Positions 549 to 64,000 are shown, counted from the stretch's first letter. The stretch: 64,000 nucleotides of DNA from Calditrichia bacterium (GCA_963777955.1 CAVZSQ010000017.1:231737-295736); one strand, 5' to 3'. The notes: generated by a model from the sequence alone, not told the origin. Translations and numbers: made by a program.

Positions 549-838
549 TCCTAAAGATTCTTCATCCCGATGAATCGGGATTCAGAATGACAGATTGGTA
601 TTTTTAAGACAGTTTTAAGAGGTTCTCTGTTATCTTTTAATGAACCTTATCGGAAAATATGCTGACCCAGCTGATACTAAGGCTGATGAAAAAATTACTA
701 ATTACAATTCAAATTACCAATTACCAATTATATAATAACTGTAGCATAACTTATTATCAGAGAAATAAATTACGAGGTGTTTTATGAAGTTATTTAAATA
801 TATCATACCCGGCCTGTTGCTGCTTTCGGTTTTACGCC

Positions 839-2206
839 GTGCTGGCCGGCACCAATACAACCCTGTTCTATCATGATACTCCGCAGGGGGTGGTGCGCGG
901 TGATAATGTGCGTATTGAAGTTATGCTTAATACGCCGGGATCACAAATCTATGACATGTACCTGTTTTATCGCCAGGTTGGTAGCAACAATTACCAGCGG
1001 GTGGCCATGGAAAATGAGGGATTTCTTTATTATGCCTCGCTGAATACGGAGAACATCACGACCGGGCGGATCGAATATTATATCGGTTATGAAGGCGAAC
1101 TGGGTAAGATCGGTACGTTGCCCGAGGGGTCTGCCCAGACCAATCCTTTTGTCATGCTGGTTGCCCCGGCCCAGGTGGCTTCGCCAAAGAATGACGTGGA
1201 AATTATGGTAATCAGCCCGGATCCGGATGCGACCGTGGCTGCCGATGAACTGGTCATTGCCGCTTATTTGATGGGTGTGGGCAGCGATTTTGATTTTTCC
1301 AAAAGCAAATTGCTGATCGACGGAGCCAATGTGACCAGCATGATTGAATTTGCCGATGGGGTCATCACCTTTTCACCCAGGCAAATCAAAGGGGGCCCGC
1401 ATAATATTGAACTTAACCTGTATGATGCCGGGAATAATATGATCGGTAAAAAGGAATGGTCGTTCCGCGCCGGCGGCCAGGTCGAAGCACAGAGACCGTC
1501 TAACTACCGCGGATCGGTGTTCATGGAAGAACGCTATCAGGATGTCAGCGATATCAGCGATAATTTTGTACGCGGCGGGGGTGATTTCAGCGCGCGCTAC
1601 TCCAGACTCGAGGCCAACGCCCGCCTGCTTTTTTCTTCGGAGGAATCAGCCAACCGGCAACCGGTAAACCGTTATAGCCTGGGCCTGCGCTATAACCTGT
1701 CCGACTACAATAACCTGTATTTACGGGGCGGGGATTTTACGCCCATCCACAACCCGCTGACCTTCTATAATAAGCGGGTGCGCGGAGTTCAGGCCGGTCT
1801 GCAACTGGGCTTCTTCCTGTTTGATTTTGTTTATGGCCAGACCTACCGGGGCATTAATGGGGCAATCCGGCAGGATACTTCCGCCACTACCACGCTGGAC
1901 GGTGACCTGGTTATCTCCACTATAAACGAAGGGGGCATCTACGGTGAAAATGTCATGTCGCTGCGCCCGGGATTCCGTTTTGGTTCGCATGCTACCTGGA
2001 ATTTGAATCTGATCAATGCCAAGGAGGATCCCAAGTCCATTAAATACGGCAACAATCCCAAGGAATCACTGGTCGTCGGTACTGATCTGAATCTGAATTT
2101 CGATCAGCGCCGGATTTTATTCGAAGCGGCAGTGCAGGCCAGCATGGTCAACAGCAATGCCGGCGGACCGGAGATCAGTCTGGGATACTTTGACCAGCGT
2201 CTATAG
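839..2206 (+). CDS. Large outer-membrane protein, N-terminal part (one frameshifted gene spanning 784..3224)
   Basis: A Sec signal peptide MKLFKYIIPGLLLLSV is encoded from ATG 784 in a different frame. A T-tract (gtttta, ~831) separates it from this ORF. Ig-like N-terminal region followed by a beta-rich body; continues in ORF 2157..3224. Confidence 0.5.
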   Translation: MLAGTNTTLFYHDTPQGVVRGDNVRIEVMLNTPGSQIYDMYLFYRQVGSNNYQRVAMENEGFLYYASLNTENITTGRIEYYIGYEGELGKIGTLPEGSAQTNPFVMLVAPAQVASPKNDVEIMVISPDPDATVAADELVIAAYLMGVGSDFDFSKSKLLIDGANVTSMIEFADGVITFSPRQIKGGPHNIELNLYDAGNNMIGKKEWSFRAGGQVEAQRPSNYRGSVFMEERYQDVSDISDNFVRGGGDFSARYSRLEANARLLFSSEESANRQPVNRYSLGLRYNLSDYNNLYLRGGDFTPIHNPLTFYNKRVRGVQAGLQLGFFLFDFVYGQTYRGINGAIRQDTSATTTLDGDLVISTINEGGIYGENVMSLRPGFRFGSHATWNLNLINAKEDPKSIKYGNNPKESLVVGTDLNLNFDQRRILFEAAVQASMVNSNAGGPEISLGYFDQRL

Positions 2207-3224
2207 CGGGTTGAAAGATAATTCCACGGCAGAGAGCATGTTTAACCTGCTGGAGAGCACCGGTTTTCTGTCCATTACCCCGGGACTGAGCCCTTATCCC
2301 AGCCTGGGCCTGAATCTGGAAGCCACCTTCCGTTATTTTAACAACGATCTGCAGGTAAAATATCTCAGCCTGGCTAAAAATTTCGCCACCCCCGGTAATC
2401 CATACCTGTTAAAAGACATGGCCGGTATTTACATTAATGATTACATGCGGGTGCTGAACAACCAATTGTATATCAATTTATTTTATAACAATTTTAATCA
2501 GGATAAATCTGATGACTTGCTGAGTACCGCCAATCAGGAAATCGGCACTACGATTTCCTATTTCCCGGTGGGCAATATTCCGTCGTTTACCGTCGGTTAT
2601 GCCAGCATCAGCCGCAGCAATGACATTGCGGCTAACGATACCGCCGCTTTTGTCAATCCGCAATATTATATGGAAGATAATTCCACCCAGCGCTTCATGC
2701 TCTCCACCACCTATAACCTGGAAGTCAGCAGGGTAAAAAATGCCGTGTCACTGACCATGAATACCTATGGCCGGGATGAAAATGTTGAGTTTAAAAAAGA
2801 GAACGCCAGTGATTTTACGCTGTACGGCATCGGGGTGGTCAGCAAATTTCAGATCCCGCTGATCACCCGGGTCAATTATTCGCAATCGGCCAGCAATTTT
2901 GGCACGGCGGCCGCATCAAAATATGAAACGGATATTCAAAGAATATTTTTAGGTGTTGAATATGAACTGCTTAATTTGATCGGTGCCGATGTGCTGAAAC
3001 CGTTTGTGAATGTAACCCTGCAGAATATTAACAGTAAAAGCCAGGGCGGGAGTTTCGATTCGCCCAGGAATAACTACACGGTCGGCCTGGCTTACCGCAA
3101 TCAGCAATGGGGTGTTTTCTCACTGCGCTTTGATCAGATAGCCTATGAACTTCCCGGGGTGGGTGACACCACGGATGATTTTTCCGATACGATATTTAAT
3201 CTGCGGTATCAGTATAACTTTTAA
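2157..3224 (+). CDS. Large outer-membrane beta-barrel protein, C-terminal part (same gene as 839..2206, second frameshift ~2160-2200)
   Basis: Overlaps the previous ORF by 50 nt in another frame. Alternating amphipathic beta-strand pattern. Ends ...NLRYQYNF with a C-terminal Phe typical of OM beta-barrels. Confidence 0.5.
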   Translation: MPADRRSVWDTLTSVYSGLKDNSTAESMFNLLESTGFLSITPGLSPYPSLGLNLEATFRYFNNDLQVKYLSLAKNFATPGNPYLLKDMAGIYINDYMRVLNNQLYINLFYNNFNQDKSDDLLSTANQEIGTTISYFPVGNIPSFTVGYASISRSNDIAANDTAAFVNPQYYMEDNSTQRFMLSTTYNLEVSRVKNAVSLTMNTYGRDENVEFKKENASDFTLYGIGVVSKFQIPLITRVNYSQSASNFGTAAASKYETDIQRIFLGVEYELLNLIGADVLKPFVNVTLQNINSKSQGGSFDSPRNNYTVGLAYRNQQWGVFSLRFDQIAYELPGVGDTTDDFSDTIFNLRYQYNF

Positions 3225-5559: not shown

Positions 5560-7120
5560 ATGTTAAAAAAGCGTATTCTTTGGGCCGATGATGAAATCGA
5601 ATTACTGCAATCGCATATCCTGTACCTGCAGACCAGGGGATATGAGGTGGAGACGGTAACCAACGGTGATGATGCCATCGGCAAATTCAGCCGAGGGTAA
5701 TTTCGATATCGTGCTGCTGGACGAGATGATGACCGGCAAGGATGGCCTGGCCACACTGCAGGAGATCAAAAACATCTCACCGCAGATCCCGGTGATCATG
5801 ATCACCAAAAATGAAGAAGAACGGTTGATGGAGGATGCCATTGGCCAGAAAATCGATGATTACCTGACCAAGCCGGTCAATCCCAGCCAGATTTTATTAG
5901 CCTGCAAAAAAATTCTGGACAGCAAGAATATCGCCACCGAGCAAAAAAGCCGGAAATACACGGAAGAATTAAAGCAATTTTCGGAACAGTTATCGAGCCC
6001 ACTGAATCATAAGGACTGGATTGAATTGAATTTAAATTTATTCAAATGGGACCTGGAAATTGACAGTTCGATGGAGCCGCAGTACCGCGAGATCTTCAAT
6101 GACCAGCGCCGGGAATGCAACGTGGAATTCGGGAAATACATCGAGAAAAATTATCAGAACTGGATCTGGAAAAAAGAGGAGTCGCCGCTGCTGTCCACGG
6201 ACCTGGTTAAAAAATATGTCATCCCGGAACTGCGGCAGAAGCAAAACGTGATCCTGCTGGTCATCGACTGCCTGCGCCTGGATCAATGGCTGGTGCTGGA
6301 ACCGTTTTTTTACGATTACGTCAATGTAATCCGCGATTATTATTTTTCGGTACTGCCGACGGCCACCCCTTTTTCGCGCAATGCCATTTTCAGCGGGTTA
6401 TTCCCTGAAGAAATCGAAAAAAAATATCCGGAGTTATGGGTCAGGGACGATGAGGATGAAAATAGTTTGAACAAATACGAGAAGGAGTTGCTCGAACAGA
6501 ATCTGCAGCGTAATGGTATTAATCTGGAGCGCGGGATCAAATATATCAAAATCATGAATAACGACGATGCCAGATATCTGGAGAAGAATCTGAACTCGTT
6601 TATGGATACCCCCCTGCTGGCAATTGTCCTGAATTTTGTCGATGTGCTGGCGCACAGCCGTTCCGATCTGCCGATCCTGAAGGAAATTGCTCCCAATGAA
6701 TCGGCCTATCGTTCGCTGACCCGCAGCTGGTTTGAGCATTCCCCGATGTTTAATGTGATGAGAGAACTGGCCAAATCCAACCGCAGCTTTTTCATCACCA
6801 CCGATCACGGCAGCATCCGGGGGATGCGCGGCACCAGGGTGATCGGCGACCGGGAATCATCCACCAATCTGCGTTATAAGTATGGCCGCAGTCTGAAAGT
6901 CGAAAGGAAAAATGCCATTTATGTCAAGAATCCGTCTGATTTCAAACTGCCCAGGCGCGGGATCAATACGACGTATATAATTGCCAAGGAAGATTATTAT
7001 TTCATTTATCCCACCAATTATAATAAATACTTAAATTATTACAAGGACAGTTTTCAGCATGGCGGAGCCTCGATGGAGGAGATGATTTTACCGTTCATCC
7101 GCCTGGAGCGGAAGGGTTAG
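5560..7120 (+). CDS. porX: PorX-family T9SS response regulator: CheY-like receiver + PglZ (alkaline-phosphatase-like) domain. Frameshift at ~5695
   Basis: MLKKRILWADDEIELLQSHILYLQTRGYEVETVTNGDDA... then, after a +1 shift, ...NFDIVLLDEMMTGKDGLATLQEIK...IPVIMITKNEEE...DYLTKPVNPSQILL. Near-identical architecture and motifs to P. gingivalis PorX. PglZ motifs VIDCLRLDQW, TATPFSRNAIFSG, TTDHGSI. Confidence 0.8.
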
Positions 7121-7564
7121 ATGAAACAGGAGGTACTGATTATCCGGGAAGTGGCCGATCAAAAGGAATCATCCGCCTTCGCCGCCGAAGCGGTCGCCTT
7201 CTTTGAGGCGAATGATACGATTTTACTTTACGGCGAACTGGGCAGCGGCAAGACTTTCCTGGTGAAGGAATTTGCCCGGTTACTGGGTTCGCAGCATCCG
7301 GTCAGCAGTCCTTCTTTTACCATTGTGAATCAGTACAGCGGAAAATTTCTGATCAATCACATTGATCTATACAGAATTTCCGACCTGCGTGAAATACAAA
7401 ATTTAGGATTGGATGATTTCTGGGACAGGGGGTATATAAATTTTGTGGAGTGGCCGGATATAATCGAATCAAGTATTACCTGGCCGCATTTCAGAATTAA
7501 TATCGAAGCGCATTTTCCGTTAAAATACTGGCGCAGGTTCAGGTTAAGCCGCCATGCCGGATAA
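7121..7564 (+). CDS. tsaE: tRNA t6A37 threonylcarbamoyladenosine biosynthesis protein TsaE
   Basis: P-loop LYGELGSGKTFLVKEFARLLG. YjeE-family size. Followed by tsaB and rimI. Confidence 0.8.
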   Translation: MKQEVLIIREVADQKESSAFAAEAVAFFEANDTILLYGELGSGKTFLVKEFARLLGSQHPVSSPSFTIVNQYSGKFLINHIDLYRISDLREIQNLGLDDFWDRGYINFVEWPDIIESSITWPHFRINIEAHFPLKYWRRFRLSRHAG

Positions 7565-8216
7565 TCCATTAGTACTGGGCCTGGACACTTCCGGGATAAA
7601 GTGCCTGGTGGCACTGTGGCGGGATAATCAGGTTCTATACCAGCAGACCGTGACAGCACCCAATCTGCATTCGACCCTGCTGGCCGGCCTGGTCGGCGGC
7701 GGATTGCAAGAACTGCAACTGGAACCTGATGCGGTGCAATTAGTGTGTGTAACCTGCGGACCGGGTTCTTTTACCGGGTTGCGTATCGGGATGGCTTATG
7801 CCAAGGGATTCTGCTTTGCCCTGCAGATACCGCTGATAGCAGTGACAAATTTTGAATTACTGGCACTGCAGGTACAGGATCGGGCCAGGCCCATTTTTGC
7901 CCTGATCGATGCCCGCCGGGAATCCTGTTACCTGGGTATCTTTAAGCAGAGTCCGCAGGAACTTGCTGAATATAAAATTGTGCAGATATCCGAACTGGAT
8001 CAGCACATCGGGGCAGAAGGGTGTATTGTAATTGAAGCACGGCAGGATGGCGCCGGGTGCAATTTACCAGCGGAGTTAAAAGACAGGATAATCCGGGTCA
8101 GCAGCGAACCGGGCGGTATCTGCCGGTTGGGCTACCTGAAATATCAACGGGGAGAACAGGCTGATCCGGCTCAGTTAGAGCCTTTATACATTCAGTCGTT
8201 TGCCGGGGTGTTATGA
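7554..8216 (+). CDS. tsaB: tRNA t6A biosynthesis protein TsaB (YeaZ)
   Basis: LGLDTSGIKCLVAL...GPGSFTGLRIG motif. Overlaps tsaE. Confidence 0.8.
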   Translation: MPDNPLVLGLDTSGIKCLVALWRDNQVLYQQTVTAPNLHSTLLAGLVGGGLQELQLEPDAVQLVCVTCGPGSFTGLRIGMAYAKGFCFALQIPLIAVTNFELLALQVQDRARPIFALIDARRESCYLGIFKQSPQELAEYKIVQISELDQHIGAEGCIVIEARQDGAGCNLPAELKDRIIRVSSEPGGICRLGYLKYQRGEQADPAQLEPLYIQSFAGVL

Positions 8217-8674
8217 ACCTGCACTTCCGCAAGATGCAGCATCAGGATATTGCCGAAGTTTACAAGATTGAATGCGATCTGTTCCAGGATCCCTGGTCTT
8301 ACGAAAGTTTTGTGCGGGATGTGGAAGATGAGCAGATCGCCAGTGCTTTTGTAGTTGAATTAGAAAAAGACATTGCCGGTTATGCCATCTGCTGGAACTA
8401 CTCCAGCGAGATTCATATCGGCAACATCGCGGTTTCCAGAAAATGGCAGCGGCAGGGTATCGGTGCTTTTATCCTGAGTAAGCTGCTGGAATATTTTAAA
8501 GATGTGGAGGTTTCCTATCTGGAAGTCCGGGAGCACAATCAGCCGGCAATCAGTTTATATCAGAAATTTGGTTTTGAAACCATGTATGTCAGGAAAGGAT
8601 ACTATCCTGACGGCGAGAATGCATTGGTCATGGTAAAAAAAATCATCAACCGAGGAGAAAATGGATTGGTTTAA
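8213..8674 (+). CDS. rimI: Ribosomal-protein-alanine N-acetyltransferase RimI (GNAT)
   Basis: GNAT acetyl-CoA motif (VSRKWQRQGIGAFIL). Canonical tsaE-tsaB-rimI synteny. Confidence 0.75.
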   Translation: MNLHFRKMQHQDIAEVYKIECDLFQDPWSYESFVRDVEDEQIASAFVVELEKDIAGYAICWNYSSEIHIGNIAVSRKWQRQGIGAFILSKLLEYFKDVEVSYLEVREHNQPAISLYQKFGFETMYVRKGYYPDGENALVMVKKIINRGENGLV

Positions 8675-9518
8675 AAGGAAAAAAGAAGTATTAAAATCTG
8701 TAGAGCGGAAAGAAATTCCGGATGGATTATGGATCAAGTGCGAGGAATGCGGCGAGATAATTTATAAAAAGGAATTGGAGAAAAAACTCTACGTCTGTCC
8801 CAAATGTGATTATCATTTTCGCATCGGCAGTTATGACTATATCGACATTTTACTGGATAGCGACACCTTCGAGGAGTTCAACCAGCATATCAGTTCCAGC
8901 GATCCGCTGCGCTTCAGGGATAATAAAAAGTACTCGGAAAAATATCAGAGTGCGGTCAAAAAAACCGGCTTAAAAGAAGCGGTGGTTACCGGCCGGGGCA
9001 AGTTGGACGGGCTGGATATCGTACTGGCTTTTATGGATTTTTCTTTCCTGGGCGGCAGTATGGGTTCGGTGGTGGGTGAAAAAATATCCCGGGCGATCAG
9101 CGCCGCGCTGGAAGAAAAAAAGGCGTTGATCATCATCTCGTCTTCGGGCGGAGCCCGCATGCACGAAGGGGTACTCAGCCTGATGCAGATGGCGAAAACC
9201 AGCGCCAAACTGGCCATGCTGGCCGATCAGGGTTTACCGTTTATTTCTATATTGACCAATCCCACTACCGGGGGTACCACGGCCAGTTATGCCATGCTGG
9301 GGGATATTCATATCGCCGAACCGGGTGCGCTGATCGGTTTTGCCGGACCCCGTGTGATCAAACAGACCATCGGCCAGGATTTACCCCCCGGATTCCAGCG
9401 CTCGGAATTTTTACTGGAGCATGGATTCATTGATGTGATTGTGCACCGCAATGAATTAAAAAATCATATCAGCGGGATTTTGAAATTCTTTCAGCATAAA
9501 AATCAACCGGACAAATAA
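8661..9518 (+). CDS. accD: Acetyl-CoA carboxylase carboxyltransferase subunit beta AccD
   Basis: N-terminal zinc ribbon CEECGEIIYKKELEKKLYVCPKCDYHFRI plus carboxyltransferase domain. Confidence 0.9.
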   Translation: MDWFKRKKEVLKSVERKEIPDGLWIKCEECGEIIYKKELEKKLYVCPKCDYHFRIGSYDYIDILLDSDTFEEFNQHISSSDPLRFRDNKKYSEKYQSAVKKTGLKEAVVTGRGKLDGLDIVLAFMDFSFLGGSMGSVVGEKISRAISAALEEKKALIIISSSGGARMHEGVLSLMQMAKTSAKLAMLADQGLPFISILTNPTTGGTTASYAMLGDIHIAEPGALIGFAGPRVIKQTIGQDLPPGFQRSEFLLEHGFIDVIVHRNELKNHISGILKFFQHKNQPDK

Positions 9519-9567
9519 GCGTGGGGTCGCGGATAACAGGTATAATTAAGCAGTTGCGGGTGGCAGG

Positions 9568-10326
9568 GTGAATATTCTGATTACCAATGATGACGGCATA
9601 CATGCAGCGGGACTGTACCAGTTGAAGCAGGCCTTGCAGCAGATTGCCGAGGTACTGGTGGTGGCACCGGATACGGAGCAGAGCGCCGTAGGTCATGCTA
9701 TAACCGTGTCCGATCCGCTGCGTGTCTACCCGGTGGAAAAGGATAATAGTTTTTTCGGCTACGCGGTCAATGGTACCCCGGCTGATTGCGTCAAACTCGG
9801 CCTGAAATGCCTGCTGGAAAAAAAGGCGGACCTGGTTGTATCCGGAATTAATTTGGGTCCCAACACCGGCACAAATATTATATATTCCGGGACCGTTTCA
9901 GCGGCAGCCGAAGCCGTGATCATGGGTGTTCCCGGTCTGGCTTTGTCGATCGCTTCTTTTCATGTTCATGAATATGAATTTGCCTGTACCCTGGCCGTTA
10001 CCCTGGCGCAAAAGATATTGAAACATGGACTCCGGCCGGGCACGTTATTAAATGTGAATGTACCGGCGTTGAAAAGCAGTGAAATTAAGGGGGTGGTCAT
10101 CACCCGGCAGGGTAAGGCCCGCTTTGAGGAATCATTCGATAAACGGGTCGATCCGACCAACCGGGTCTATTACTGGCTGACCGGTAAACGCTTGTACCTG
10201 GATAAAGAGGATGATCTTGATGACGTGGTGGTTCAGCAGCACAAGGTTTCGATCACTCCGATACGTTATGATTTGACCGATCTGACGATGTTGACGGAAC
10301 TGAAAAAATGGGAAATTGAACGGTGA
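9568..10326 (+). CDS. surE: 5'/3'-nucleotidase SurE
   Basis: MNILITNDDGIHAAGL... N-terminal SurE signature. Confidence 0.9.
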   Translation: MNILITNDDGIHAAGLYQLKQALQQIAEVLVVAPDTEQSAVGHAITVSDPLRVYPVEKDNSFFGYAVNGTPADCVKLGLKCLLEKKADLVVSGINLGPNTGTNIIYSGTVSAAAEAVIMGVPGLALSIASFHVHEYEFACTLAVTLAQKILKHGLRPGTLLNVNVPALKSSEIKGVVITRQGKARFEESFDKRVDPTNRVYYWLTGKRLYLDKEDDLDDVVVQQHKVSITPIRYDLTDLTMLTELKKWEIER

Positions 10327-11876
10327 CCCAGGACTATATACATGAAACCATAGTCGTGCTTGACTTTGGTTCGCAATATACCCAGTTGATTGCCCGGCGC
10401 ATCCGGGAACTGGGAGTATTTTCGGTCATTCAGCCCTACAATGTACCTGTGGCGGGATTGAAAAACAGAATGATCAGGGGGATTATCTTATCAGGGGGGC
10501 CGGCATCGGTTTACAGTAAGGACGCGCCGCTGCTGGATAAGGAATTCCTGAATTTAAATATTCCGGTTCTGGGGATCTGTTATGGCTTGCAACTGCTGAC
10601 TAATATGACCGGGGGCCGTGTTGCCGCCGGTGAAAAGCGGGAATACGGCAAGGCGATTTTGTCCATTGCCGCTGATACTCCGCTGTTCAGCGGAATGTCC
10701 CGGGAATCGGTGGTCTGGATGAGTCATGGTGATAAAGTAACGGATCCCGGATCGGCCTTTCAGGCGGTTGCCTCGACCGCCAACAGCAAATTTGCAGCCG
10801 TGCAGCACACCTCCGCTAAGCCGGTTTATGGCATCCAGTTTCATCCCGAGGTGGAACACAGCGCAGAAGGGCGTAAATTATTAAAGAATTTTTGTTTTAA
10901 AATATGTAATTGCCGGGGGGACTGGTCGGCCGATTCTTTTATTGACGAAGCGGTCACAGATATTCGTGAAAAAGTCGGCGGGGACAAGGTTGTTTGCGGG
11001 TTAAGCGGCGGAGTGGACAGCAGCGTGGTGGCCATCCTGGTGGATAAAGCCATCGGAAAAAATCTGTACAGTATTTTTGTGGATACGGGTTTATTGCGGA
11101 AGGATGAAGCGAACAAGGTTGAAGCGGTGTTTAAAAAGAATTTCCGGCTCAATCTGACCTGTATTAACCGGGGTGAGCTGTTCCTGCAGAGATTAAAGGG
11201 GGTGGTTGATCCCGAACAAAAACGCAAAATCATCGGCCATTTGTTTATAGAAATTTTTGAGGAAGAATCAAAAAAAATCGGGAATCCCAGATATCTGGCC
11301 CAGGGCACCCTTTACCCGGATGTGATCGAGAGTGTTTCGGTGAAAGGCCCTTCAGCCACCATCAAATCGCATCACAATGTCGGCGGGTTGCCGGAAGAGC
11401 TGCCGTTCCGCTTGCTGGAACCGCTCAGGGAATTATTCAAGGATGAAGTCCGCGCGGTGGCCCGGCAACTAAATTTACCCGAAGAAATAATTGGCCGTCA
11501 TCCTTTTCCCGGCCCGGGTTTAGCCGTAAGGATTCCCGGGGAAATTACCGCGGACAAGGTAAAAATATTACAGGAAGCAGACGAGATTTACATCACAGAA
11601 TTGCAACGTCATAATCTGTATAATAAGATCTGGCAAGCATTCGCCGTTCTTCTGCCGGTGCAAACCGTCGGCGTCATGGGGGATTCCCGAACCTATGATT
11701 ATGTAGTGGCCTTGCGTGCTGTGACCAGCAGCGACGGCATGACGGCCGATTGGTTTGAGCTGCCGCGTGATATCATGGCTGTAATATCCAACCGGCTGAT
11801 CAATGAAGTCGCAGGAATCAACCGGGTGGTTTATGATGTAAGTTCGAAACCTCCGGCAACAATCGAATGGGAATAA
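10323..11876 (+). CDS. guaA: GMP synthase (glutamine-hydrolysing) GuaA
   Basis: GATase class I domain plus PP-loop ATP pyrophosphatase (GLSGGVDSSV) and C-terminal GMP synthase domain. Ends ...IEWE. Confidence 0.95.
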   Translation: MTQDYIHETIVVLDFGSQYTQLIARRIRELGVFSVIQPYNVPVAGLKNRMIRGIILSGGPASVYSKDAPLLDKEFLNLNIPVLGICYGLQLLTNMTGGRVAAGEKREYGKAILSIAADTPLFSGMSRESVVWMSHGDKVTDPGSAFQAVASTANSKFAAVQHTSAKPVYGIQFHPEVEHSAEGRKLLKNFCFKICNCRGDWSADSFIDEAVTDIREKVGGDKVVCGLSGGVDSSVVAILVDKAIGKNLYSIFVDTGLLRKDEANKVEAVFKKNFRLNLTCINRGELFLQRLKGVVDPEQKRKIIGHLFIEIFEEESKKIGNPRYLAQGTLYPDVIESVSVKGPSATIKSHHNVGGLPEELPFRLLEPLRELFKDEVRAVARQLNLPEEIIGRHPFPGPGLAVRIPGEITADKVKILQEADEIYITELQRHNLYNKIWQAFAVLLPVQTVGVMGDSRTYDYVVALRAVTSSDGMTADWFELPRDIMAVISNRLINEVAGINRVVYDVSSKPPATIEWE

Positions 11877-11892
11877 TTATGGAAGGGAAAAT

Positions 11893-20650: not shown

Positions 20651-20670
20651 AGCGATTGCCTATAAAGGAA

Positions 20671-20767: not shown

Positions 20768-20829
20768 AGGAGTGTATCATGAGGGCTTTAGTATGCTTCT
20801 TTTACTCGTTAAATTTCTCCTCTGTTTAA

Positions 20830-50870: not shown

Positions 50871-51030
50871 ATCATAAAACTATTACAGGATAGATTTTAA
50901 AACAAATCCTTCTTCACCGCTGATTTTAGCCCAGCATGCAGATGAGTAGCGTATATCTTCATGTTATACTGATATTGCCGGACAATATATATATATTAGA
51001 ACACCTGTTAGTGAACATGAAGTAGAGGTA

Positions 51031-51803: not shown

Positions 51804-52057
51804 TCCAGAACAGCATTCTTTTAAGGATATTTATTTTTTCGCAATTCACAGTTTGTTATTTATACTGTATATGTGAATCAGTACGGATTAAAATTGAGAT
51901 TACATCCTGGTTATAGATTTTTTTAGAGACAGCAGGCGAAATGGTCAACTCGAAGCGTCTTTTTAAAAATATTTTGATTGTTTTAAGATTATCATGATTC
52001 AATATGTGGAGTAGTTCTACTCAATAATATTTTAGATAAACAGATTTGAAGAGGTAG

Positions 52058-52600
52058 TTAAATGAGGAACTTTAACTTTTTCTTTTTTCTGACACTTATT
52101 GTCACGGGTATAATTGGTTGTAAGGGCACGGGCAATTCTCCATTGGTATCGATCCCCGCAGTTTGGCCAGTCCAAAATCGGTAAGTTCTGATTTTCCCTT
52201 CCTCAGTCAGCAGGATATTGTCGGTCTTCACATCCCGGTGAATAATCTGGTGACAGTGGGCGTGTCCCAATCCTTCGGCCAGTTGCAGGCTGTAATCAAG
52301 AATTTCGGTTATGGAAAATGCTTTATCTTCTGATTTTAATTGTTTGAGTTTGGATTTCAGAGTACCACCAGAAATATATTCCAGTACCAGGTATTTCTGT
52401 CCATTAACCTCGTCCACATCGTAGATAGTTTCAATATTGGGATGATTGAGGGCTGAAATCGTTTTGGCTTCCTGCTCAAAACGGGTGACGTCTTCGGTCG
52501 AAACGTTGAGATGGAGAGGCAAGAACTTCAAGGCAACATCCCGGTCGAGTTTGGTGTCGTGGGCTTTGTAGACTGATATTAATCCGAAATAAAGAATAGA
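52058..52600 (-). pseudogene. Serine/threonine protein kinase remnant (subdomains I-VIb only)
   Basis: ...VYKAHDTKLDRDVALKFLP...HRDVKTDNILLTEEG... The catalytic loop is present, but the reading frame breaks before DFG, and the N-terminus starts inside the glycine loop next to AT-rich non-coding DNA. Confidence 0.55.
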
Positions 52601-52774
52601 AAGAAAGACTTGATATATTAATTAACATTAAAAGAGATTGCAATATATTTGACCTAATTCGCAATTCATAGAAAGATACATTCTTAAAAATCGACTGATA
52701 ATAATCTCCTTCGGAGTGAGAATATTCTGCAGGGGGTATTTAAGTTTAGTAAGTAGGCCAAAAGGTTAAAATAA

Positions 52775-53204: not shown

Positions 53205-54072
53205 ATGGCGTATTGGCTGACGGGTTCGATTGGTCTGCTTTCAGACGCGCTGGAATCCTTCATCAACCTTGTCGGCGCTATAATGGCGTTGGCGATGTTG
53301 ACCATAGCAGTTCGCCCGGCGGATGAGGACCATGCCTACGGCCATAGTAAGGCAGAATATTTTTCAAGCGGCGTTGAAGGGACATTAATTCTGATTGCCG
53401 CCGTAAGTATCGGCGTTGCGGCTATTCAACGGTTTATTACTCCAAAGCCACTTGAGCAGATTGGACTCGGATTGGGGATTTCAATTGTGGCCTCACTCAT
53501 TAACCTGTGTGTCGCGCTGGTCTTACTGCGAGCCGGTAAGCGCCACCGTTCCGTTACGCTGGAAGCCAATGCACAGCACTTGCTGACGGATGTGTGGACA
53601 TCGGCGGGTGTGCTGGTTGGGGTAGGTGCGGTAGCACTCACCGACTGGGATAGACTAGACCCGATTGTTGCCTTCCTGGTCGCTGGTAACATCATCTGGT
53701 CGGGAGTGCGCATTGTGCGCATGTCCGTATCCGGGCTGATGATACGGCTTCTTACCGGTTGAGGATCAAAACACGATACGAAAAGTGTTAGAACCGTATA
53801 TTAAAAACGGAGTACAATGTCACGCGCTTCTTACTCGTCAATCAGGTACCAGACGGTTTGTGTCATTTCATGTATTAGTTCCTGGTACATGGACCTGGGA
53901 ACGTGGTCATCGGTTAGTGGAAAATATAGAAGCTGACATTCGCCAGGCCTTACCGAGTGTTACAGTGCTTACTCACTTAGAATCGTTAAATGACCCTGCT
54001 TCATGGGAGGATACGAGTTTAGACCGCACAAAAATCCAACCGGATGATTCTCCGGCAACGCATAACAATTGA
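53205..54072 (+). CDS. Cation diffusion facilitator (CDF) family transporter. Frameshift ~53760. GC-rich
   Basis: TM region with ...[10 protein letters not shown]... (CDF signature) in ORF 53205..53762. C-terminal cytoplasmic domain in ORF 53785..54072. The ORF is open from 53130, so the N-terminus may be slightly truncated. Confidence 0.65.
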
Positions 54073-54181: not shown

Positions 54182-56087
54182 ATGGATGATTTGATGAAGC
54201 GGATTCGATGGATCTGGATTCTCCTGGCTTTATATGGATTGCCGCTGGAATCCGGGAATTACCCAGAAACTCTTAATTCTCAGTGCTGACGGCTGCCGTC
54301 CGGACGCCCTGTTGAAAGCCGATGCCGCGAACCTTCGCGCTCTGGCTGACAGCGGCTTGTATACCTGGTGGGCTTTGAGCCGTCCGCCCACCAAAAGCGG
54401 ACCGTGCTGGTCGTCGATCTTCACCGGCGTTTGGAACGACAAGCACGGTGTCACGGACAACACCTTTGCCAACTCCAGGTTCGACCAATACCCCATGCTT
54501 ATTCAAGCGGTTGAAGAACGCTGATCCTTCTTTTTATTCCGGATGGTTTGTTTATTGGCCCAATCTCGGAACTGACATGCCCCACGGCGCGGATGTGGCT
54601 GCCGGAGACTGGTCCGACGCCAACACCCTGGAACGAGCCATCAACTTCTTGAGTGACGAACAAACGGACGCGCTGTTTGTTCATTTCGGCGCCGTTGACG
54701 CTGCAGGGCATGCATCGGGCTTCGATCCGGAAAGTCCCGAATACATCAACGCCATCCATGTCGTGGACGGCCAGGTTGGCCAGGTGATCTCCGCCATGAA
54801 GTCGCGTCCAAATTTTTCAAACGAACATTGGATGGTGATTGCCCTGACCGATCATGGAGGATACACAACCCACCATGGCGGCACGATGATCGAGGAAATG
54901 CGCACGTTTTTCATCATATCCGGGGATGACGTGCCACGCGGAGAGATTCCGCACGATTGGATAAATAAGTCATTTCGAGTTCCGCCCTACGGTTTGCGAT
55001 TGAATGGAGCCGGAGATCATGTCGCGATCCCGGATCGTGCGGATTACCATTTCGGTTCCGGTCAGGACTTCACCGTTGAATTGTGCATCCGAACGGCCGG
55101 CTGGTCCGGTACCCCGGTTTTGTTCGCCAATAAGGACATGCGGAACAAAAAGAATCCCGGATTTGCGTTTGTATTGATTGACGAGGGCAAATGGCAGGTC
55201 AACGTAGCGGATGGAACTCACGAAAAAAACATTTCAGGGCCCATCATCGCGGACGACCACTGGCATCACCTCACCGCCGTGTTCCGGCGCGGGGGCACGC
55301 TCACGCTGTTTCAGGACGGAATCAAGACCGGGGCCGTGGACATATCAGGGATCGGGAGTGTGGACACACCGTACGGATTCGTCCTCGGCCAGGACGGGAC
55401 GGAGCAGCCGAACCACGTTTGTCCCGGGCAGTATTAACGAAGTCCGCGTCTGGAAAACGGCACTTCCGGACACCCAGGTTCAAAGATGGATATTCACCCC
55501 GGTCACGCCGGAACATCCCGATTATTCCGACCTGCTCGGCTATTGGAAAATGGACGACGGGCAGGGAACATTGATCAAAGATTCGAGTCAGCCCGCAAAC
55601 GACGGGGCATTCACGGGAACTAATCCTGAGTGGATCTTTCCGGATGCAACCGTCGAAACACTGGCTTTCGATTCCTGCCAAACCGCCAAGACCGTTGACC
55701 TGACTGTCACCGCCCTCGCCCATTTCGGCATCGAAATCGAACCGGAATGGAATCTGGATGGAAGAAACCTTGTCCCGGCAAAATCGCCGGACGCGGTCCG
55801 GGAATTATTGGTTCTTCCGGTCTTCCCCACGATTCTGGAGAATTATCCCAATCCGTTTAATTCAAGCACCAAGATCAAATTCCAAATTCCAAATTCCAAT
55901 TTTGTAACTTTGGAAATTTATAACCTGCTTGGCCAGAAAGTAGTGACCTTAATGAAAGAAAATCTTAGGGTTGGTGAACGCATACGGTCAGAATGGAACG
56001 CCAGCAGGCTTTGCCAGTGGGATTTATTTGTATCGGCTGCAGGCAGGTGAGTATGAGCAGGTTAGGAAGATGATTTTACTCAGGTGA
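54182..56087 (+). pseudogene. T9SS cargo protein: alkaline-phosphatase-superfamily (NPP/phosphodiesterase-like) domain + LamG/concanavalin-like domain + Por_Secre_tail CTD. At least 4 frameshifts. GC-rich
   Basis: Signal MDDLMKRIRWIWILLALYG. LLILSADGCRPD...DHGG metal-site motifs. LamG (DFTVELCIRTAGWSG...DDHWHHLTAVF). CTD ILENYPNPFNSSTKIKFQIP...EIYNLLGQKVVTL... then a final shifted ...YRLQAGEYEQVRKMILLR. Pieces lie in ORFs 54234..54524, 54448..55437 and 55211..56050. Confidence 0.6.
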
Positions 56088-56682: not shown

Positions 56683-58338
56683 ATGAAGTTAGTAAAAAAA
56701 TTAGCCAATGCTTTCATTATCTTTTGTTTCCCGCTTATTGGATTCACTCAAACTGCAGATGAGTTTATTGCCAGGGCGGAAGGCTTTAATCAGGCCGGTG
56801 ATCTTGCCCAGGCGGCAAAGGTTATGGAAGAGGCGGTGCAAAAATTTCCCGAAAATTCAAGTGTGCATTCATACCTGGGCCTGTACCTGGGAACACAAGC
56901 CTTTATGACCAAAAACAATATGGAAGCAGGGCGGTTAATCGGAATTGCTTTTGAGCAACTGGATCAGGCTGTAGCACTGGATGCCGATAATCCCGTTGCC
57001 CGCTTCCAGCGCGGACTGTTGAGTATAAAAATGCCGGCATTTATGAACAAACTTGATGCGGGCATTGAAGATCTGCTGTTGGTAATAAAAATCGATCAGC
57101 AGGCCGCCGGTAAAATTCCCCGGGAAATGATTACTGCCACCTATGATTTTTTAGGTGAAGCGTATCAGAAAAAACAGGAGAAAGAAAAATCTATCGCTGC
57201 CTGGGAGAAAGTGATTGAAATTGTTCCAGGAACGGCTCTGGCGAAGAAGGCGCAGGAAAATATAGCAGCATTAAATAAACCGGAATCGACAGCCTCATTA
57301 AATCTGGAAAAATATACGGATAAAACCGATTGATGAATTCAACCAGGCTTTAAGTAAGGAACCGGATAATGCAGAATTGCTGATCGTATTAGGTAAAGCA
57401 CACCTGGATGCCGGAAATTATGAAAAAGCCTGCCGAGGTATTACGCAAAGCGATTCATAGCGATTCTACCAAAGTGGAAGCATACAAATTACTTATTCAA
57501 AGCATTGGTGAAATTGCAGATCAAGGGTATGATAAAAGAATTTATGACGATACAAATTTTCGTACCAATCTTGCCTTTGAACTGGTAAAGGTAGCAGATA
57601 AAGCGGTAAAAATTGCCCCGGATGACCTGGAATTAAAACTGATCCGCGGCAGGATTGGTGTGCTGATGCCGTTCTTTGTCGATGCAGCTGGAGCAGGCTA
57701 TGGCTGATCTGAATCTGGTAAAGAACAGTAATGCTGCAGACGAACTGAAAGCGGAGGCAATCTACTGGCTTGGAATGGCCTATCAGAAAAAAGCAACGAC
57801 CAGCTGGATAGAGGTGGTCGGTAAATATTCAGCCACGAATGCCTCCAAACTGGCCCTGGAAAGCATGCGGCCGGACATTAAACATTTTGATGAAACGAAA
57901 TACAAAAAACCGTTTATAGTCATAGATTTTCTGTTAGGTTTCCGCGACGAGCTGCCGCCGCAGACCGCCGTATGGATTGAGGACAATAACGGCAAATTCG
58001 TGAAAACGGTTTATGTCTCAGGATTCAGCGGTTTTGCCAGGGAAAAGCAGGCAAATTTATTAAAATGGTCGGAATCTTCCCAATTTAAAGATGTGGATGG
58101 CGTTACCGGAGCGAGCATTACTTTAGGGCAGCATATCTATGTCTGGGACTTAAAAGATTTGCAAGGGCTAAAGGTAAAACCGGGTGAGTATCTGGTTAAA
58201 ATCGAAGTGATGTACTGGCCCAGTATGGAATATGAGTGCAGCTCGGCGCCGGTTAAAATCGGGCAGAAAGAGGAAAAGGTACTTTTCAAAGAAGGTAAAT
58301 TAATTCCTTATGCCGAGCTGAAATATTTCTCTGATTAA
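56683..58338 (+). CDS. TPR-repeat protein with C-terminal DUF2271 domain (secreted). About 3 frameshifts
   Basis: Signal MKLVKKLANAFIIFCFPLIGFTQT with RBS caggagg. TPR-like helices in ORFs 56626..57333 and 57408..57707. DUF2271-like C-terminus (VWIEDNNGKFVKTVYVSGF...VDGVTGASI) in ORF 57676..58338. Confidence 0.5.
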
Positions 58339-58819
58339 AAAAATACTTTTCTTACTTATATTTTCCATACTGGTAATTTTCTGTGATCAATCTATCAGAA
58401 AACCTGAAAATTATAATGTTCAAAATATTCTGATCGGGCATTGGAGGCATAATTATAATGTTAGAGATATTTATGGAATTTCACGATCAGGTCCAATGTA
58501 TGAATTGATATTAAATGAGGACTTAACATATTCAATAGCAACTCCAAAGGAACGGTATGGTACACATACCATATCCTCCGAACAATATTATTATGTTGAT
58601 AAAGGTTCATTTAATATAAATGTAGATACACTATTCCTGGTTACTTCCCATCAAAATCATTTGAATCAGGCATTTATTTTTGAATTAGATTTTAAAAATC
58701 AAAAAATGGATTTATATGCTCCGGATGAAGAGCAAATATCCGCTGATATTGAGTTGATAGGGGATTGGTATAAAATTAACAGGTTTAGTAAAAGGATTGG
58801 TATTAGAGATGTTTATTGA
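58337..58819 (+). CDS. Lipoprotein, hypothetical (TTG start overlapping the previous stop)
   Basis: The ORF is open from TTG 58337, encoding (M)KKILFLLIFSILVIFCDQS lipobox signal, in frame with ORF 58496..58819. Confidence 0.45.
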   Translation, partial: KKILFLLIFSILVIFCDQSIRKPENYNVQNILIGHWRHNYNVRDIYGISRSGPMYELILNEDLTYSIATPKERYGTHTISSEQYYYVDKGSFNINVDTLFLVTSHQNHLNQAFIFELDFKNQKMDLYAPDEEQISADIELIGDWYKINRFSKRIGIRDVY

Positions 58820-59133: not shown

Positions 59134-59668
59134 CTATAACATTTTACGCTCAGCATTGAATCCTGATGATGTTGAAATTTTATAAAAATAGGTACCTGTA
59201 GAATATTTGGCTCCATCAAATTCATAACTGTATGAACCTGGATTTAAATTCATGGTTTCGGATTCAATTATCTGACCGGAAATTGTATATATGGAAATCG
59301 TTACCTGATCTGATTCAGGAACAGAAAACTTGAAGGTTGTCTTAGGATTAAATGGATTTGGATAATTTTGAGATGTGACATAATCTAAAAGCGAAATCTA
59401 GATTATTTATTTTAACTGGATTAACAGAAGGAGTAGTTTTAATCAGCCAAGCATTATATTCAACAGCACCGAATGAATTTATTTTACCAGTTATAATATA
59501 CCCTTCATCTATAGTCTGCTGGACTGAAGAACCTACATCAGTACCACTTCCCCCAAACGTTTTTGTCCAGAGCGTATCCACTTGAGAATAAATATTAGAC
59601 AAAGATAAAAGAAGTACAAAAATAATACTTTGCAAGAGTTGTTTTGTGGATTCTTTATGTATATTCAC
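59134..59668 (-). CDS. Small T9SS-secreted protein (signal peptide + Por_Secre_tail CTD). Frameshift ~59400
   Basis: N-terminal part in ORF 59348..59668 (signal ...IIFVLLLSLSNIYSQ). C-terminal part in another frame: ...SQNYPNPFNPKTTFKFSVPESDQVTISIYTISGQII...GTYFYKISTSSGFNAERKMLL. Confidence 0.55.
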
Positions 59669-60012: not shown

Positions 60013-60351
60013 TTACTTTTCTGCATTAATGAGCAGTTTTGGAGGTGTACCTGGGAGTGGTTTACTGAAATCGATGTTGTGATATTCGTTTATTCTCTGT
60101 TTAAACCAGACATCGAACTCATGATTTGAACTTGCTAACTTAGACATAAAATTATCCGCTCCAGGTCCTTCATGTAATGCCGCCACGACAGGACCCGCAG
60201 GTGTTTCGGCCAGCCAGGCTAAGTGCCGGGTTAAACCATATCTTGAGTTGAAGTCTTTAAATTCCTTGACTCTGCCATTTTGTAAATCTTTGGCAAATTG
60301 CTGCCATTTTTCCAATTTGCCATCTACGATGGGCGCTAAAATTAGTGACAT
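60013..60351 (-). CDS. Hypothetical protein (112 aa)
   Basis: Intact ORF with moderate GC. No family recognised by eye. Confidence 0.35.
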   Translation of the reverse strand: MSLILAPIVDGKLEKWQQFAKDLQNGRVKEFKDFNSRYGLTRHLAWLAETPAGPVVAALHEGPGADNFMSKLASSNHEFDVWFKQRINEYHNIDFSKPLPGTPPKLLINAEK

Positions 60352-60514
60352 GATATTCCCCCTTTTAGGTTTATTAAGTTTAATGTAATGTCAGGTATAA
60401 CGGATTGGACTAGATAATAATTTCAAATAAATATTAAATTTGGATTTATTAGTGAGAATAGAATTCAAACGCCCCTTCGGATTAAGGAAATTCTGAAGGT
60501 GGTATTTTATTTTA

Positions 60515-60752
60515 GGGGAATGGGTAAAGAAGGACAAAGGTCCAGGGCCAAAGGTAAATGGGTAATACAAAGAGTCATTCCCGCCAAATGTGCACCTTGC
60601 CTGGTAGTAGTACAGGCGGGAATCTATCTATTGTAATGAATGATTAGTAATTACAAGTTACCAATTGTTACAACCCATTTCTGATACAAATACAAACTTC
60701 CCATGCACTCCCAAGGAGGCGTCGCCGCTAGGTCTATCATGTAAATGCTGAT
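60515..60752 (+). repeat. Full-length (~240 bp) member of the repeat family, copy E
   Basis: ...aaagagtcattcccgccaaatgtg...ggtagtagtacaggcgggaatctatctattgtaatgaatgattag...ctgatacaaatacaaacttcccatgcactcccaaggaggcg...tctatcatgtaaatg. Collinear with copy D. Confidence 0.7.
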
Positions 60753-61111
60753 AAGTCTTTTAGTGCATATCTTCCTTGATAATACTGATTATTAAATATA
60801 TCTTATCTTAAGAAATCTCCTTTCAATCACACATCGGGAACGATGTTGAGCAATATGAATTACTCTTGTATCATATCCGATTGGCGCATTTATTAGCAAC
60901 AGAAAATGGCGTAGTTCTCGATACAAAAGGAGCAATATTTTCGCCCTGCGATCACTTCGGATTGCAAGAAATCTGTAAGTATCTGGCTGAGAAAATAATA
61001 TAACAGAAATAGATAATGCTTCTCTTCGACGATTAAAATACGAATATCAATAAAATGAGAATTCTTAGACTGAAAATTGATAAACTTTGATATATAAGAA
61101 AGGAGCCTTTA

Positions 61112-64000
61112 ATGTGTATCCGCTATATCGATCTTATTTTGTCTCTGTTTATTTTTATTTTTTTATGTACATGTGGAAATGAGAATCAGCGGGCTCCGGA
61201 AAATCAGGCATTGAAATCTGAATATACCCCCATCAAACTGGTAAAGACCCAGGCAGATACGGCAGGTTGCGGGGAAAGGATAAAAATCTTTAATGAAAAG
61301 CTGGAAAAATCCTTTATCAAGAACCAGGATCTTGATAAAACTATTCAAGCCGCATTAGAACTTGCCCCATTGGCTCAAACCCTGAATATGACCAGGCAAT
61401 TATTCGAGGCGGTCAGTCAACAATATTCTTCCGGATTCTTTACAAAGATCAGCAAAGAGAAAAAACAACAGGCCTTAAGCAATCTGATAACCGAGGGTAT
61501 GCAGGAACAGGATCCGGATCAACGCAACTTCTACCACGAACTAATCTATTATTTATTTCAGTACCATGATTATTCCGAGGACTGGTACGCTTACTGTAAT
61601 GAAAACAAGATCCGGCCCGGTCAGGAGGTTTCTGTTGCGGTGTATGACTACCGCAATTATGATGATAAACAATCAAAAAAGAGTTATAATTTATTCTTCC
61701 AGGTCAGTAAACTGGAGTTGGATGAAAATCTAAAGCCACAGGAATTCAATATCATCCGGCAGGATACACTTTATCAGGTCAGCGATTACTATGAGGTCCT
61801 GACCGATACTTTAAAGGAACCGGGTATCTATCGACTTACTGTTTACAATGATAAAAACTTCAGTGATTTTTATGTGCAGGTCACACTGCTGGACCTGATC
61901 ACCAAACGAACCCCGGACCAACTCCTGGTTTGGGTCTCCTCTTTTAAGGACAGTGTAAAAGGCCCCTATGATGTGGTATTGCTTTACGGGCAGGATAAGC
62001 ACATTAAAGTTAAAAGTAAAGAGAATGGTACGGCCTATTTTACTATCGATGCCGAACCAGAGGCCGCGTCGGATATCCAGGTTGCCGCAGCCCAAGGCGA
62101 ACATTATGCATTTTCCAGTGATCGTATGTACTGGAGCTATGTGGACAGAATTGATCAGCAAGCCTATATCTATTTTGACCGTCCGATATACCGGCCCGGA
62201 CAGAAGGTTCACCTTAAAGGAATTTTCCGTTCCGTATTACCCAATGGTTCGCTCAGGCCAACGTACCTGGATTCCATCACAGTAGAAATCAACGATCCCA
62301 ACTATGAAGAGACTGTACTGTTCCACTTTGACGGTAGATGAATTCGGGCAGTTTGGTGATTCTTTAAACCTGGCAGAAGACGCTAAACATGGAAATTACC
62401 GAGTTGAAATATCTGATCCTCATGTGCCTGGCTCCGGTAAGGGCCGGCAGCCGATCAGTTTGCTTGAGACCTATTTTAGCGGTTTCATTGTAGAATCCTA
62501 TAAAAAACCTGAATTTAAAATCACAGTTGCGCCGCAGAATAAATGGGTGCTCCTCAATGAGCAGGCCGCCTTTGATATTGCCGGCGAATATTATTTCGGC
62601 GCCCCGCTGGCCAATTTGGAGATCACACTGCGCTGGTATACCCAAAACATGCAGTACTATTTCCCCTGGTGGACAGGCAGTCAATCTCAGCCATATTTCT
62701 ATCCCACAGGTGACAAGACGCTGCTCAAGGAAGAAAAAATTAAGTTGGATGTAGCCGGTAAAGCTGTAGTTAAATATCAGGCCAAGAACATGCAGGACTA
62801 TGGTTTCCTGATCCTGGAAGCCAGGGCCACAGATGCCTCCCGCCGCCTGGTATCTACCGAGGCTCAGGTTAAATGCGTGAAGTACGATGTATACCTGAAT
62901 CTATCCACAGATAAATGGACATATAACCAGGGCGATGCTGTTAAAGTGACTGTATCTGCCTTTACCATGGATGAGAAACCTTACCAGGGCAAATGCAGAC
63001 TGAGCCTGACCAAGGACCGCAGTATCGAGTTGGAAAAGGAATTATTATTTGATAAAAATGGCGTAGCAAGATTCGGATTTATGCCCAAAGAGACCGGTGC
63101 ATATACCCTGAAGGTTGAAATAATGGATTCCCGGGAGAGGGCTGTAGTTGTAACCGGAGAATTTAACGTCCAGGAAAAAAAGACTATTACCTGGGATTGG
63201 GAACAAATCACCCTGAAAGCAGACAAGGAAAAATATGCAGTCGGTGACACCGTAAAGATAACCCTTGATACCGGTGCGGATGATGTCCGTTCACTGTTCA
63301 CGGTTGAAGGGGGTAATTTAAAGAACTACGGATTGGAAACCATCAAAGAACACACAGCTGACTACTATTATGTTATCCCTCAGGACCAGGGCACCAATTT
63401 TTACATAGGCGCCGCCTTTTCCGGTCGCACCAACATGGTTTATCAAGATATCCGTGTGGTCGTGGTGGATTCTGCACTCATCCTTAACCTACAGTTGGCC
63501 GGTCCGGATAAGCTTAAACCGGGAGATACGTATGAAGGAGAAATCACCCTGGCCGACCGACAGGGCCAACCTGTAGCCGGCTGTTTCTCACTGGCCCTGG
63601 TGGATGAATCAATTTTTGATGTGGCTGAAAAATCCACTTATCAACGCAACAGTGACGGCTACGGGCTTCTTTTTGACATATTTGGTGACTTGAGTTCAGA
63701 ACAGGAGGAAGAAGAAATTTCTATTTGGGATTATTTTACCAAAAGGCTCGATAACAAGGTACAAAACAATATATCTGATTTTGATCAAAAGTATATAAGC
63801 CAGCTGGATAAAATGGGTAAGGTACTGGCTGAGCCGGAAGCACAAGAGATTAGCAGATCCCAGAACGCTGCTGCAAGATATAAGGACGGAAAACGTTCTG
63901 CGATGGAGAAAGAAATTGCCGGTGAAGGTGTGCTGGCATTTTTAAGTGCCGGTGGTAGTGCTGAGAACGAAATAGCCCTTGATGATGTTTTGGGTGGTGT
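61112..64000 (+). CDS. Alpha-2-macroglobulin family lipoprotein (MG-domain protease inhibitor), 3'-partial. Frameshift ~62340
   Basis: Lipobox signal ...LSLFIFIFLCTCG. Repeated MG/Ig-like domains. Continuous in a second frame from ~62340 to the window end. Confidence 0.65.

Follow-up and report, generated by a model that had tools for sequence, protein, structure and literature searches.

Insertion-only frameshifts in a 64-kb stretch of an uncultured Calditrichia genome most likely reflect consensus errors of the assembly

The locus and its broken genes

The window analyzed here is a stretch of 64,000 nucleotides from the genome assembly of a Calditrichia bacterium (GCA_963777955.1, CAVZSQ010000017.1:231737-295736). 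It holds about 57 genes, most of them on the + strand, and comes from an uncultured bacterium of the Fibrobacterota–Chlorobiota–Bacteroidota (FCB) group; it encodes type IX secretion system (T9SS) C-terminal sorting domains and a PorX-type regulator. An initial annotation, made from the sequence alone, had listed some 25 frameshifts in secreted, surface and accessory genes. That count is borne out by profile searches, blastx and DNA alignment, which together reveal roughly 25 changes of frame, spread over about 20 of the 57 or so genes of the deposited sequence. Every one of these changes is +1 going downstream in the gene, and wherever the lesion could be located to the base, it consists of a nucleotide that related assemblies lack. 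The feature is most likely a technical artefact and not a biological one.

Frames were followed by three tests: Pfam profiles crossing from one frame to another, blastx against homologues, and DNA alignment to intact relatives. When species-representative genomes were scanned with GlmS, no near relative emerged, the closest protein being at most 63% identical. A metagenome scan and cluster look-ups supplied contigs of relatives from 10 or more independent assemblies. Those from JGI (L084, L098, L104-L114 and L117) include one of 76 kb that is collinear with the window at 0.8-42 kb. The closest relative is the ENA contig L116, a short-read contig with a MEGAHIT-style name that shares 93-97% identity with the window. 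Another ENA contig, L115 (ERZ25039461, contig_90936), is the only relative that shares the gene order of the window at 44-57 kb, but it is too noisy to serve as a comparator.

In the Pfam test, a profile begun in one frame carries on in another for the CHASE2 cyclase, NIF3, GH18, the FAD/BBE oxidase, the CDF transporter, the phosphodiesterase-LamG protein, CBM9 and the MG2 domain of alpha-2-macroglobulin, while the receiver domain of PorX lacks its first 40 profile positions. With blastx, a single subject protein spans two to three frames of the window for PorX, NIF3, the HD-domain protein, the T9SS tail of the phosphodiesterase-LamG-DUF4983 cargo (hereafter PhoLamG) and the LVIVD cargo. A search with 15 gene fragments joined into one query of 3167 aa returned 12 matches, all of them long T9SS proteins, and confirmed the three shifts of the LVIVD gene. 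Finally, a three-frame reading places the signal peptide out of frame with the mature protein in the outer membrane protein (OMP), the LpoA-like lipoprotein, the DUF4832-like protein and PhoLamG. The lesions are listed below by position in the window.

836, + strand: OMP gene (784-3224, 809 aa); extra G at codon 18, at the signal-peptide junction, +1; contig L109 lacks the base and its open reading frame (ORF) has 809 aa
2179, + strand: same OMP gene (784-3224); extra T, +1; ORFs overlap at 2097-2203
3658, + strand: CHASE2 adenylate/guanylate cyclase; extra T giving an immediate TAA, +1; CHASE2 profile positions 2-93, then 103-253 in the next frame
5689, + strand: PorX-type response regulator (5560-7120); extra A, +1; seen in the DNA alignment of relatives and by blastx
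13801, + strand: LpoA/LppC-like lipoprotein (13737-15603); extra A at codon 22, +1
19171, + strand: anti-sigma factor; extra T near the 3' end; 168 aa here versus 189 aa in relatives
32188, - strand: NIF3; extra G splitting an A7 run, +1; alignment of relatives, blastx and Pfam
32800-32802, - strand: HD-domain gene; one extra base, +1; alignment of relatives and blastx
36975-36981, intergenic, upstream of the DUF4832-like gene: two extra bases (36975, 36980), absent from L098, L106, L116 and L117
37084-37085, + strand: DUF4832-like gene (start 36992); extra T at codon 32, at the signal-peptide junction, +1
39922-39926, intergenic, upstream of CBM9: one extra base specific to the window
40391, + strand: CBM9 gene (39965-40718); extra A in mid-gene, +1; CBM9_2 C-terminus in the next frame
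41705-41706, + strand: GH18 (40751-41933); extra A, +1; alignment of relatives and Pfam
42056-42188, + strand: first 135 nt of an amidohydrolase gene; burst of about six extra bases; the ORF stays open
43849-43903, - strand: lipoprotein gene; one base missing (43903), then an extra G (43849), with an out-of-frame stretch between
47176-47177, + strand: FAD/BBE oxidase; extra C, +1
48779-48816, + strand: LVIVD/PKD T9SS cargo (48505-51771), shift 1; +1, located to the frame; blastx frames 1 to 2
49530-49570, + strand: LVIVD/PKD T9SS cargo, shift 2; +1, located to the frame; blastx frames 2 to 3
about 50840-50876, + strand: LVIVD/PKD T9SS cargo, shift 3; +1, located to the frame
50947-50949, + strand: LVIVD/PKD T9SS cargo; in-frame TAG
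52188, - strand: Ser/Thr kinase remnant; extra base just before the DFG motif; the C-terminal half is gone too
53743-53759, + strand: CDF transporter; +1 between the Cation_efflux and ZT_dimer domains
54154, intergenic, upstream of the phosphatase-LamG gene: extra G specific to the window
54256 (G), 54498 (C), 55401 (G), 56004 (G), + strand: PhoLamG (54194-56087); four frame-shifting extra bases
55968-55986, + strand: PhoLamG; three more extra bases within 18 nt, amounting to one codon
57302-57330 (probably 57329), 57393-57457 and 57667-57704, + strand: TPR-DUF2271 gene (56683-58338); three +1 shifts
59351-59397, - strand: small T9SS-tailed protein; +1 shift
62286-62338 (probably 62307-62314), + strand: alpha-2-macroglobulin (A2M) gene, MG2 domain; +1; MG2 profile positions 2-48, then 46-82 in the next frame

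Lesions fall within codons 2-46 in six exported proteins. The initial annotation had also put breaks at the signal-peptide junctions of CBM9, GH18 and the FAD oxidase; these breaks fall about 57%, 79% and 66% of the way along the respective genes, and the oxidase has no signal peptide. It had overlooked the lesions in the anti-sigma factor (19171), the kinase remnant (52188) and the amidohydrolase (about six bases), as well as those in intergenic DNA (36975, 36980, 39922 and 54154). The apparent in-frame TAA of the lipoprotein gene arises because the missing base and the extra base leave an out-of-frame stretch between them. The TAG of the LVIVD cargo may have arisen by substitution or through an insertion paired with a deletion, and at most one nonsense codon in the window is left unexplained.

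Several other candidates were dismissed. The apparent break at 48038-48119 (AHSA1) and the ORF at 40402-40878 are spurious, and the apparent -1 shifts (CBM9 from frame 1 to frame 0, AHSA1, and the TPR gene at 57330) are spurious ORFs or two successive +1 shifts. An alternative genetic code was rejected, as all three stop codons end long ORFs and the lesions are changes of frame.

Comparison with related assemblies

Twenty sites were resolved to the base (836, 2179, 3658, 5689, 13801, 19171, 32188, 32800, 37085, 40391, 41705, 42137, 42169, 42188, 43849, 47176, 54256, 54498, 55401 and 56004). At all 20, the window carries one extra nucleotide; relatives from at least 10 independent assemblies, L116 among them, do not have it. 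The orthologues in relatives are full length: 809 aa for the OMP, 727 for the cyclase, 519 for PorX, 621 for the LpoA-like lipoprotein, 250 for NIF3, 183 for the HD-domain protein, 412-416 for the DUF4832-like protein, 250-255 for CBM9, 393-404 for GH18, 513 for the FAD/BBE oxidase and 645-646 for PhoLamG. The extra bases of PhoLamG are absent from L104, L105, L113 and L117 alike.

The closest relative allows the spectrum of changes to be read directly. Over the 4.1 kb that L116 shares with the window, the only indels of any size are five single bases extra in the window, three of them intergenic. In a three-taxon comparison of the window and L116, with L106 as outgroup, the window's branch carries four single-base insertions and no deletion, and the branch-specific substitutions are balanced (117 in the window versus 115 in L116). 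Nor do mismatches cluster significantly around the extra bases, their density within 15 nt of an insertion being 13.7% against a background of 11.6% (P=0.12). The process at work on the window's branch thus adds single bases and has no other discernible effect. Against relatives of about 87% identity, intergenic DNA holds 12-14 single bases extra in the window versus 5-6 lacking from it, an asymmetry that is non-significant alone and was not used as evidence.

Apart from the extra bases, the hit genes are under normal purifying selection. When the window was read in the frame of its relatives, the pooled ratio of nonsynonymous to synonymous substitution rates (dN/dS) was 0.118 for 15 broken genes versus 0.121 for 22 intact ones.

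Some of the extra bases come in bursts. In PhoLamG, four occur within 36 nt of the segment that encodes the C-terminal domain. The amidohydrolase is a more deceptive example: its ORF (42053-43132, 359 aa) is open, yet residues from about 2 to 45 are garbled, the frame having been regained by chance. All 11 of 11 relatives read NFDLK-LLDWKPKSQL-VV(K/R)ETQ-(V/I)LKPKFPV in this region, and the window encodes the parts of this segment successively in frames 0, +1, +2 and 0. Thus, the intact ORFs of the assembly are not necessarily correct.

Contig L115, which has a Flye-style name, reproduces the gene order of the window, with the kinase remnant in place, but is broken up into ORFs of 80-160 aa. 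Its single-base indels run both ways, against the window as well as against the JGI relative, and it looks like another low-accuracy long-read contig. Because of this noise, the lesions at 48-53 kb were resolved only to the frame.

Direction and sequence context of the extra bases

Altogether, the window holds about 36 extra bases versus one clearly lost base (43903). Measured against a natural insertion fraction of 0.43, this insertion-only bias yields P values between about 1e-9 and 1e-12. Across the 20 sites placed to the base, the inserted nucleotides are G (seven), A (five), T (four) and C (four), and 16 of them are unlike either neighbour; by comparison, a randomly chosen base put in at random would equal one of its neighbours in 42% of cases. 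The run in which the extra base stands has a length of 1 at 16 sites, 2 at two sites, 3 at one and 4 at one. Conversely, none of the 149 homopolymers of at least 6 nt in the window has been lengthened by an extra base.

These contexts contradict the proposal that several breaks sit in homopolymer or dinucleotide runs. For example, the lesion at 836 is an extra G after TTTTAC, and that at 13801 is an extra A before GCGCGCG. Homopolymer and dinucleotide slippage was therefore rejected at base level. A shared or methylation-type CAG/CTG motif was likewise discarded (12 observed versus 8.4 expected, non-significant), and no 3-mer or 4-mer enriched around the sites survives multiple-test correction, with the best 4-mer failing against 136 tests. 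Taken together, the lack of runs, the lack of a motif and the neighbour-unlike bases exclude slippage and with it phase variation, along with motif-dependent mechanisms such as programmed frameshifting and methylation-linked miscalls.

Distribution along the window

For statistics of distribution, events less than 200 nt apart were merged, giving 27 clusters. The two halves of the window differ, with 7 clusters in the first and 20 in the second (P=0.019). Binned at 4 kb, the clusters have a variance-to-mean ratio of 1.64 (P=0.056). The longest empty stretch, 13.0 kb from 19171 to 32188, has P=0.055, and the two largest gaps jointly have P=0.012. The argument that uniform error would not spare stretches of 12-17 kb was thus overstated. 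Alignment with relatives revealed no lesion in 7121-13719, guaA, glmS, the pullulanase, the S9 peptidase or hom, as the initial annotation had reported. The sparing of such housekeeping stretches is modestly significant (P about 0.01-0.06), although one stretch supposed to be clean is interrupted at 19171.

Over the whole window, exported genes carry more clusters than others (0.71 versus 0.27 per kb, P=0.02), in keeping with the concentration in secreted and accessory genes claimed earlier. However, this association vanishes when stratified by position: above 32 kb the densities are 0.83 and 0.67 per kb (P=0.81), with corresponding values of 0.40 and 0.13 per kb below that point (P=0.17). As neither half yields a significant difference, the excess in exported genes is an effect of position and not of gene class. 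Lesions occur in cytoplasmic, membrane and exported genes as well as in intergenic DNA, whereas conserved housekeeping coding sequences (CDS) are depleted of lesions relative to intergenic DNA.

The lesion-dense half overlaps DNA that is absent or rearranged among relatives. The 76-kb JGI contig has no aligned counterpart of window 48-54 and 56-64 kb. The T9SS cargo region at 44-64 kb is a mosaic among L104, L105, L113, L115 and L117, in which the gene order past CorA varies. In L104, for example, window 56.1-59.0 kb is missing, so that the PhoLamG gene is joined straight to 59039 without the TPR-DUF2271 block. In L105, the PhoLamG gene bears the sorting domain of the LVIVD gene, i.e., a different T9SS tail.

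Other features of the window

The Ser/Thr kinase remnant (51859-52621, - strand) matches only positions 14-138 of the 263 in the Pkinase profile. At window position 52141, L115 holds about 1.2 kb more, and the window thus lacks the C-terminal half of the kinase. On this comparison, the truncation looks genuine and distinct from the single-base lesions.

The ORF at 58322-58816 (+ strand) has a lipoprotein-like N-terminus (KKILFLLIFSILVIFC) with no ATG, GTG or TTG before 58496, and an in-frame ATG stands three codons upstream, behind a stop; its start is probably damaged too. The segment at 60016-61046 (- strand) consists of four short ORFs in the same or +1 frames, with two in-frame stops between them and no Pfam match, where the AT content of the window is at its highest (GC 0.36-0.39). 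It may be a decayed gene or non-coding DNA. In L104 (JGI Ga0374056_00527570), separate genes are called for the phosphodiesterase and the LamG part at 137-2016, and 72 nt of the window (54815-54886) are unmatched, which could reflect a deletion that keeps the frame or a local fault of the contig.

The GC skew is above zero across 1-64000 (G 15908 versus C 13830), and the cumulative skew climbs steadily. Together with the mostly + strand genes, this is consistent with a single replichore and no switch within the window.

Origin of the extra bases

The +1-only spectrum, the bases private to the window, the bursts and the unchanged dN/dS make a technical origin the best explanation. The frameshifts would thus, with good probability, be uncorrected single-base insertion errors of the assembly consensus that are more closely spaced in the second half, which is strain-variable. 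The breadth of the damage also counts in favour of an artefact, as lesions affect about 20 of the 57 or so genes in what is a free-living-type FCB bacterium. Random insertions at the level of reads could survive consensus building and polishing where read support is thin. Support may be thinner in the second half, where a mixed population would supply fewer agreeing reads over the strain-variable DNA of the T9SS cargo. If the consensus rule called a base in preference to a gap wherever depth is low, insertions alone would result. Inflation of frameshifts and pseudogenes is known in metagenome-assembled genomes (MAGs) built from long reads and is worse at low coverage (PMC8103633; PMC12007338). 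The window resembles such long-read or low-coverage assemblies (PMC8103633; PMC12007338; PMC8574707) in its single-base breaks in many genes of different kinds, with several in some genes, in the intactness of independently assembled relatives, in the absence of a decay signature and in the deposition of fragments as proteins. The initial annotation had suggested consensus collapse over strain-variable DNA, which of its three alternatives comes nearest to the explanation favoured here. A technical origin and the variable gene content of the dense half uphold part of that idea, but collapse alone cannot create single-base insertions in coding sequence. The larger differences, namely the truncated kinase and the differences in gene content, are probably separate and real structural differences.

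Several observations weigh against consensus error. Residual indels of long-read assemblies are reported to be often deletions and mostly associated with homopolymers, which account for 70-99% in PacBio assemblies and for 92% of circular consensus sequencing (CCS) errors (PMC8574707; PMC12007338). The lesions in the window are the opposite, being insertions of arbitrary bases, 80% of them outside any run, and thus do not match a textbook platform error. The absence of both a substitution excess and a rise in mismatches further indicates that the consensus is not of generally low quality. In addition, housekeeping CDS are clean and intergenic DNA nearby is hit: within the stretch covered by L116, three of the five window-specific insertions fall in the approximately 7% that is intergenic. 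Such a contrast between coding and non-coding DNA would not be expected from read errors alone and would fit selection or a frame-aware corrector. It is therefore conceivable, though unlikely, that errors were evenly spread and that a homology-guided frameshift corrector or a reference-based polisher then cleaned the conserved CDS, which would be a refinement of the technical explanation. Correction of this kind is applied to long-read MAGs (PMC8103633; PMC12007338), and it would account for the clean state of highly conserved CDS next to damaged intergenic DNA and for the six exported proteins broken within codons 2-46, since errors would persist in intergenic DNA, in weakly conserved N-termini and signal peptides, and in accessory genes of low conservation. 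Yet many lesions survive in well-conserved Pfam domains (CHASE2, NIF3, GH18, MG2 and FAD/BBE) and at the CDF domain boundary, where an aligner aware of frameshifts would notice them, neither N characters nor any other sign of a corrector is present in the window, and the insertion-only nature of the remainder would still need a cause.

The contrast between coding and non-coding DNA could also be the work of selection, if an insertion-biased mutator had very recently created true pseudogenes and selection had cleared the insertions from essential CDS but not from intergenic DNA and accessory exported genes. The insertions specific to the window do lie in intergenic DNA and dispensable genes, they are denser in strain-variable accessory DNA, and the kinase remnant shows that some real decay is present. 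This account is nevertheless very improbable. In leaf-nodule Burkholderia, where many genes of dispensable function are likewise frameshifted by several lesions each, deletions outnumber insertions, sizes vary, nonsense codons occur and constraint is relaxed; 300 of 696 indels in such bacterial pseudogenes are insertions (about 43%), with mean sizes well above 1 nt (PMC6054270). The window, on the other hand, shows only +1 changes of 1 nt that are not of slippage type, and nonsense codons are nearly absent. It is implausible that independent mutations should have placed three insertions within 52 nt, or about six within 135 nt. The branch shows no surplus of substitutions, and dN/dS remains as in intact genes even with seven extra bases in one gene. 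It would also be necessary to accept that about one-third of the genes, including PorX, NIF3, an OMP and the LpoA-like lipoprotein, had been newly inactivated. On these grounds, the genuine pseudogenisation proposed earlier is strongly disfavoured. A related idea, a real and very recent burst of untemplated single-nucleotide insertions that selection purged from core CDS only, would be very improbable on the sequence evidence; if true, an insertion burst without deletions or extra substitutions would represent a mutational process lacking a described bacterial counterpart.

Contingency loci undergo phase variation through slipped-strand mispairing at simple-sequence repeats, and the initial annotation had raised this possibility for the surface proteins of the window. 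Several of the hit genes do encode exported proteins or T9SS cargo, with some frameshifts near the 5' end, just past the signal peptide. Phase variation is refuted, however, by the sites themselves: no lesion has a repeat tract, the longest run is 4 nt, and the A7 run in NIF3 is broken rather than lengthened. Moreover, all changes go in one direction, the relatives are all in a single state, without the base and without a tract at the site, and the cytoplasmic NIF3, HD-domain protein, FAD oxidase and PorX are hit together with intergenic DNA, leaving this reading next to no probability. Programmed +1 ribosomal frameshifting or quadruplet decoding, by which the genes would still be expressed, has an equally negligible standing. 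It would explain why every shift is +1, but the sites share no common motif, slippery sequence or stop context and do not stand at a stop of the 0 frame (in the HD-domain gene, the old frame remains open for 24 more codons). In addition, the extra base is missing from the orthologues of every relative and hence is not a conserved feature, and the window has no tRNA genes; damage to intergenic DNA also speaks against a translational role.

Implications

If the extra bases are errors of the consensus, as argued above, about one-third of the genes of the window stand as fragments in public protein collections. For example, a 417-aa fragment of the LVIVD cargo (49617-50870) is a public protein, and the garbled amidohydrolase has likewise been deposited. 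The combination of marks found here, i.e., shifts that are all +1, inserted bases unlike both neighbours and an unchanged dN/dS, offers a cheap diagnostic that requires no reads for distinguishing artefactual from genuine pseudogenes. For the biology of this bacterium, it follows that it would be wrong to infer from this assembly that the genome is decaying, that T9SS cargo has been lost or that phase variation is at work.

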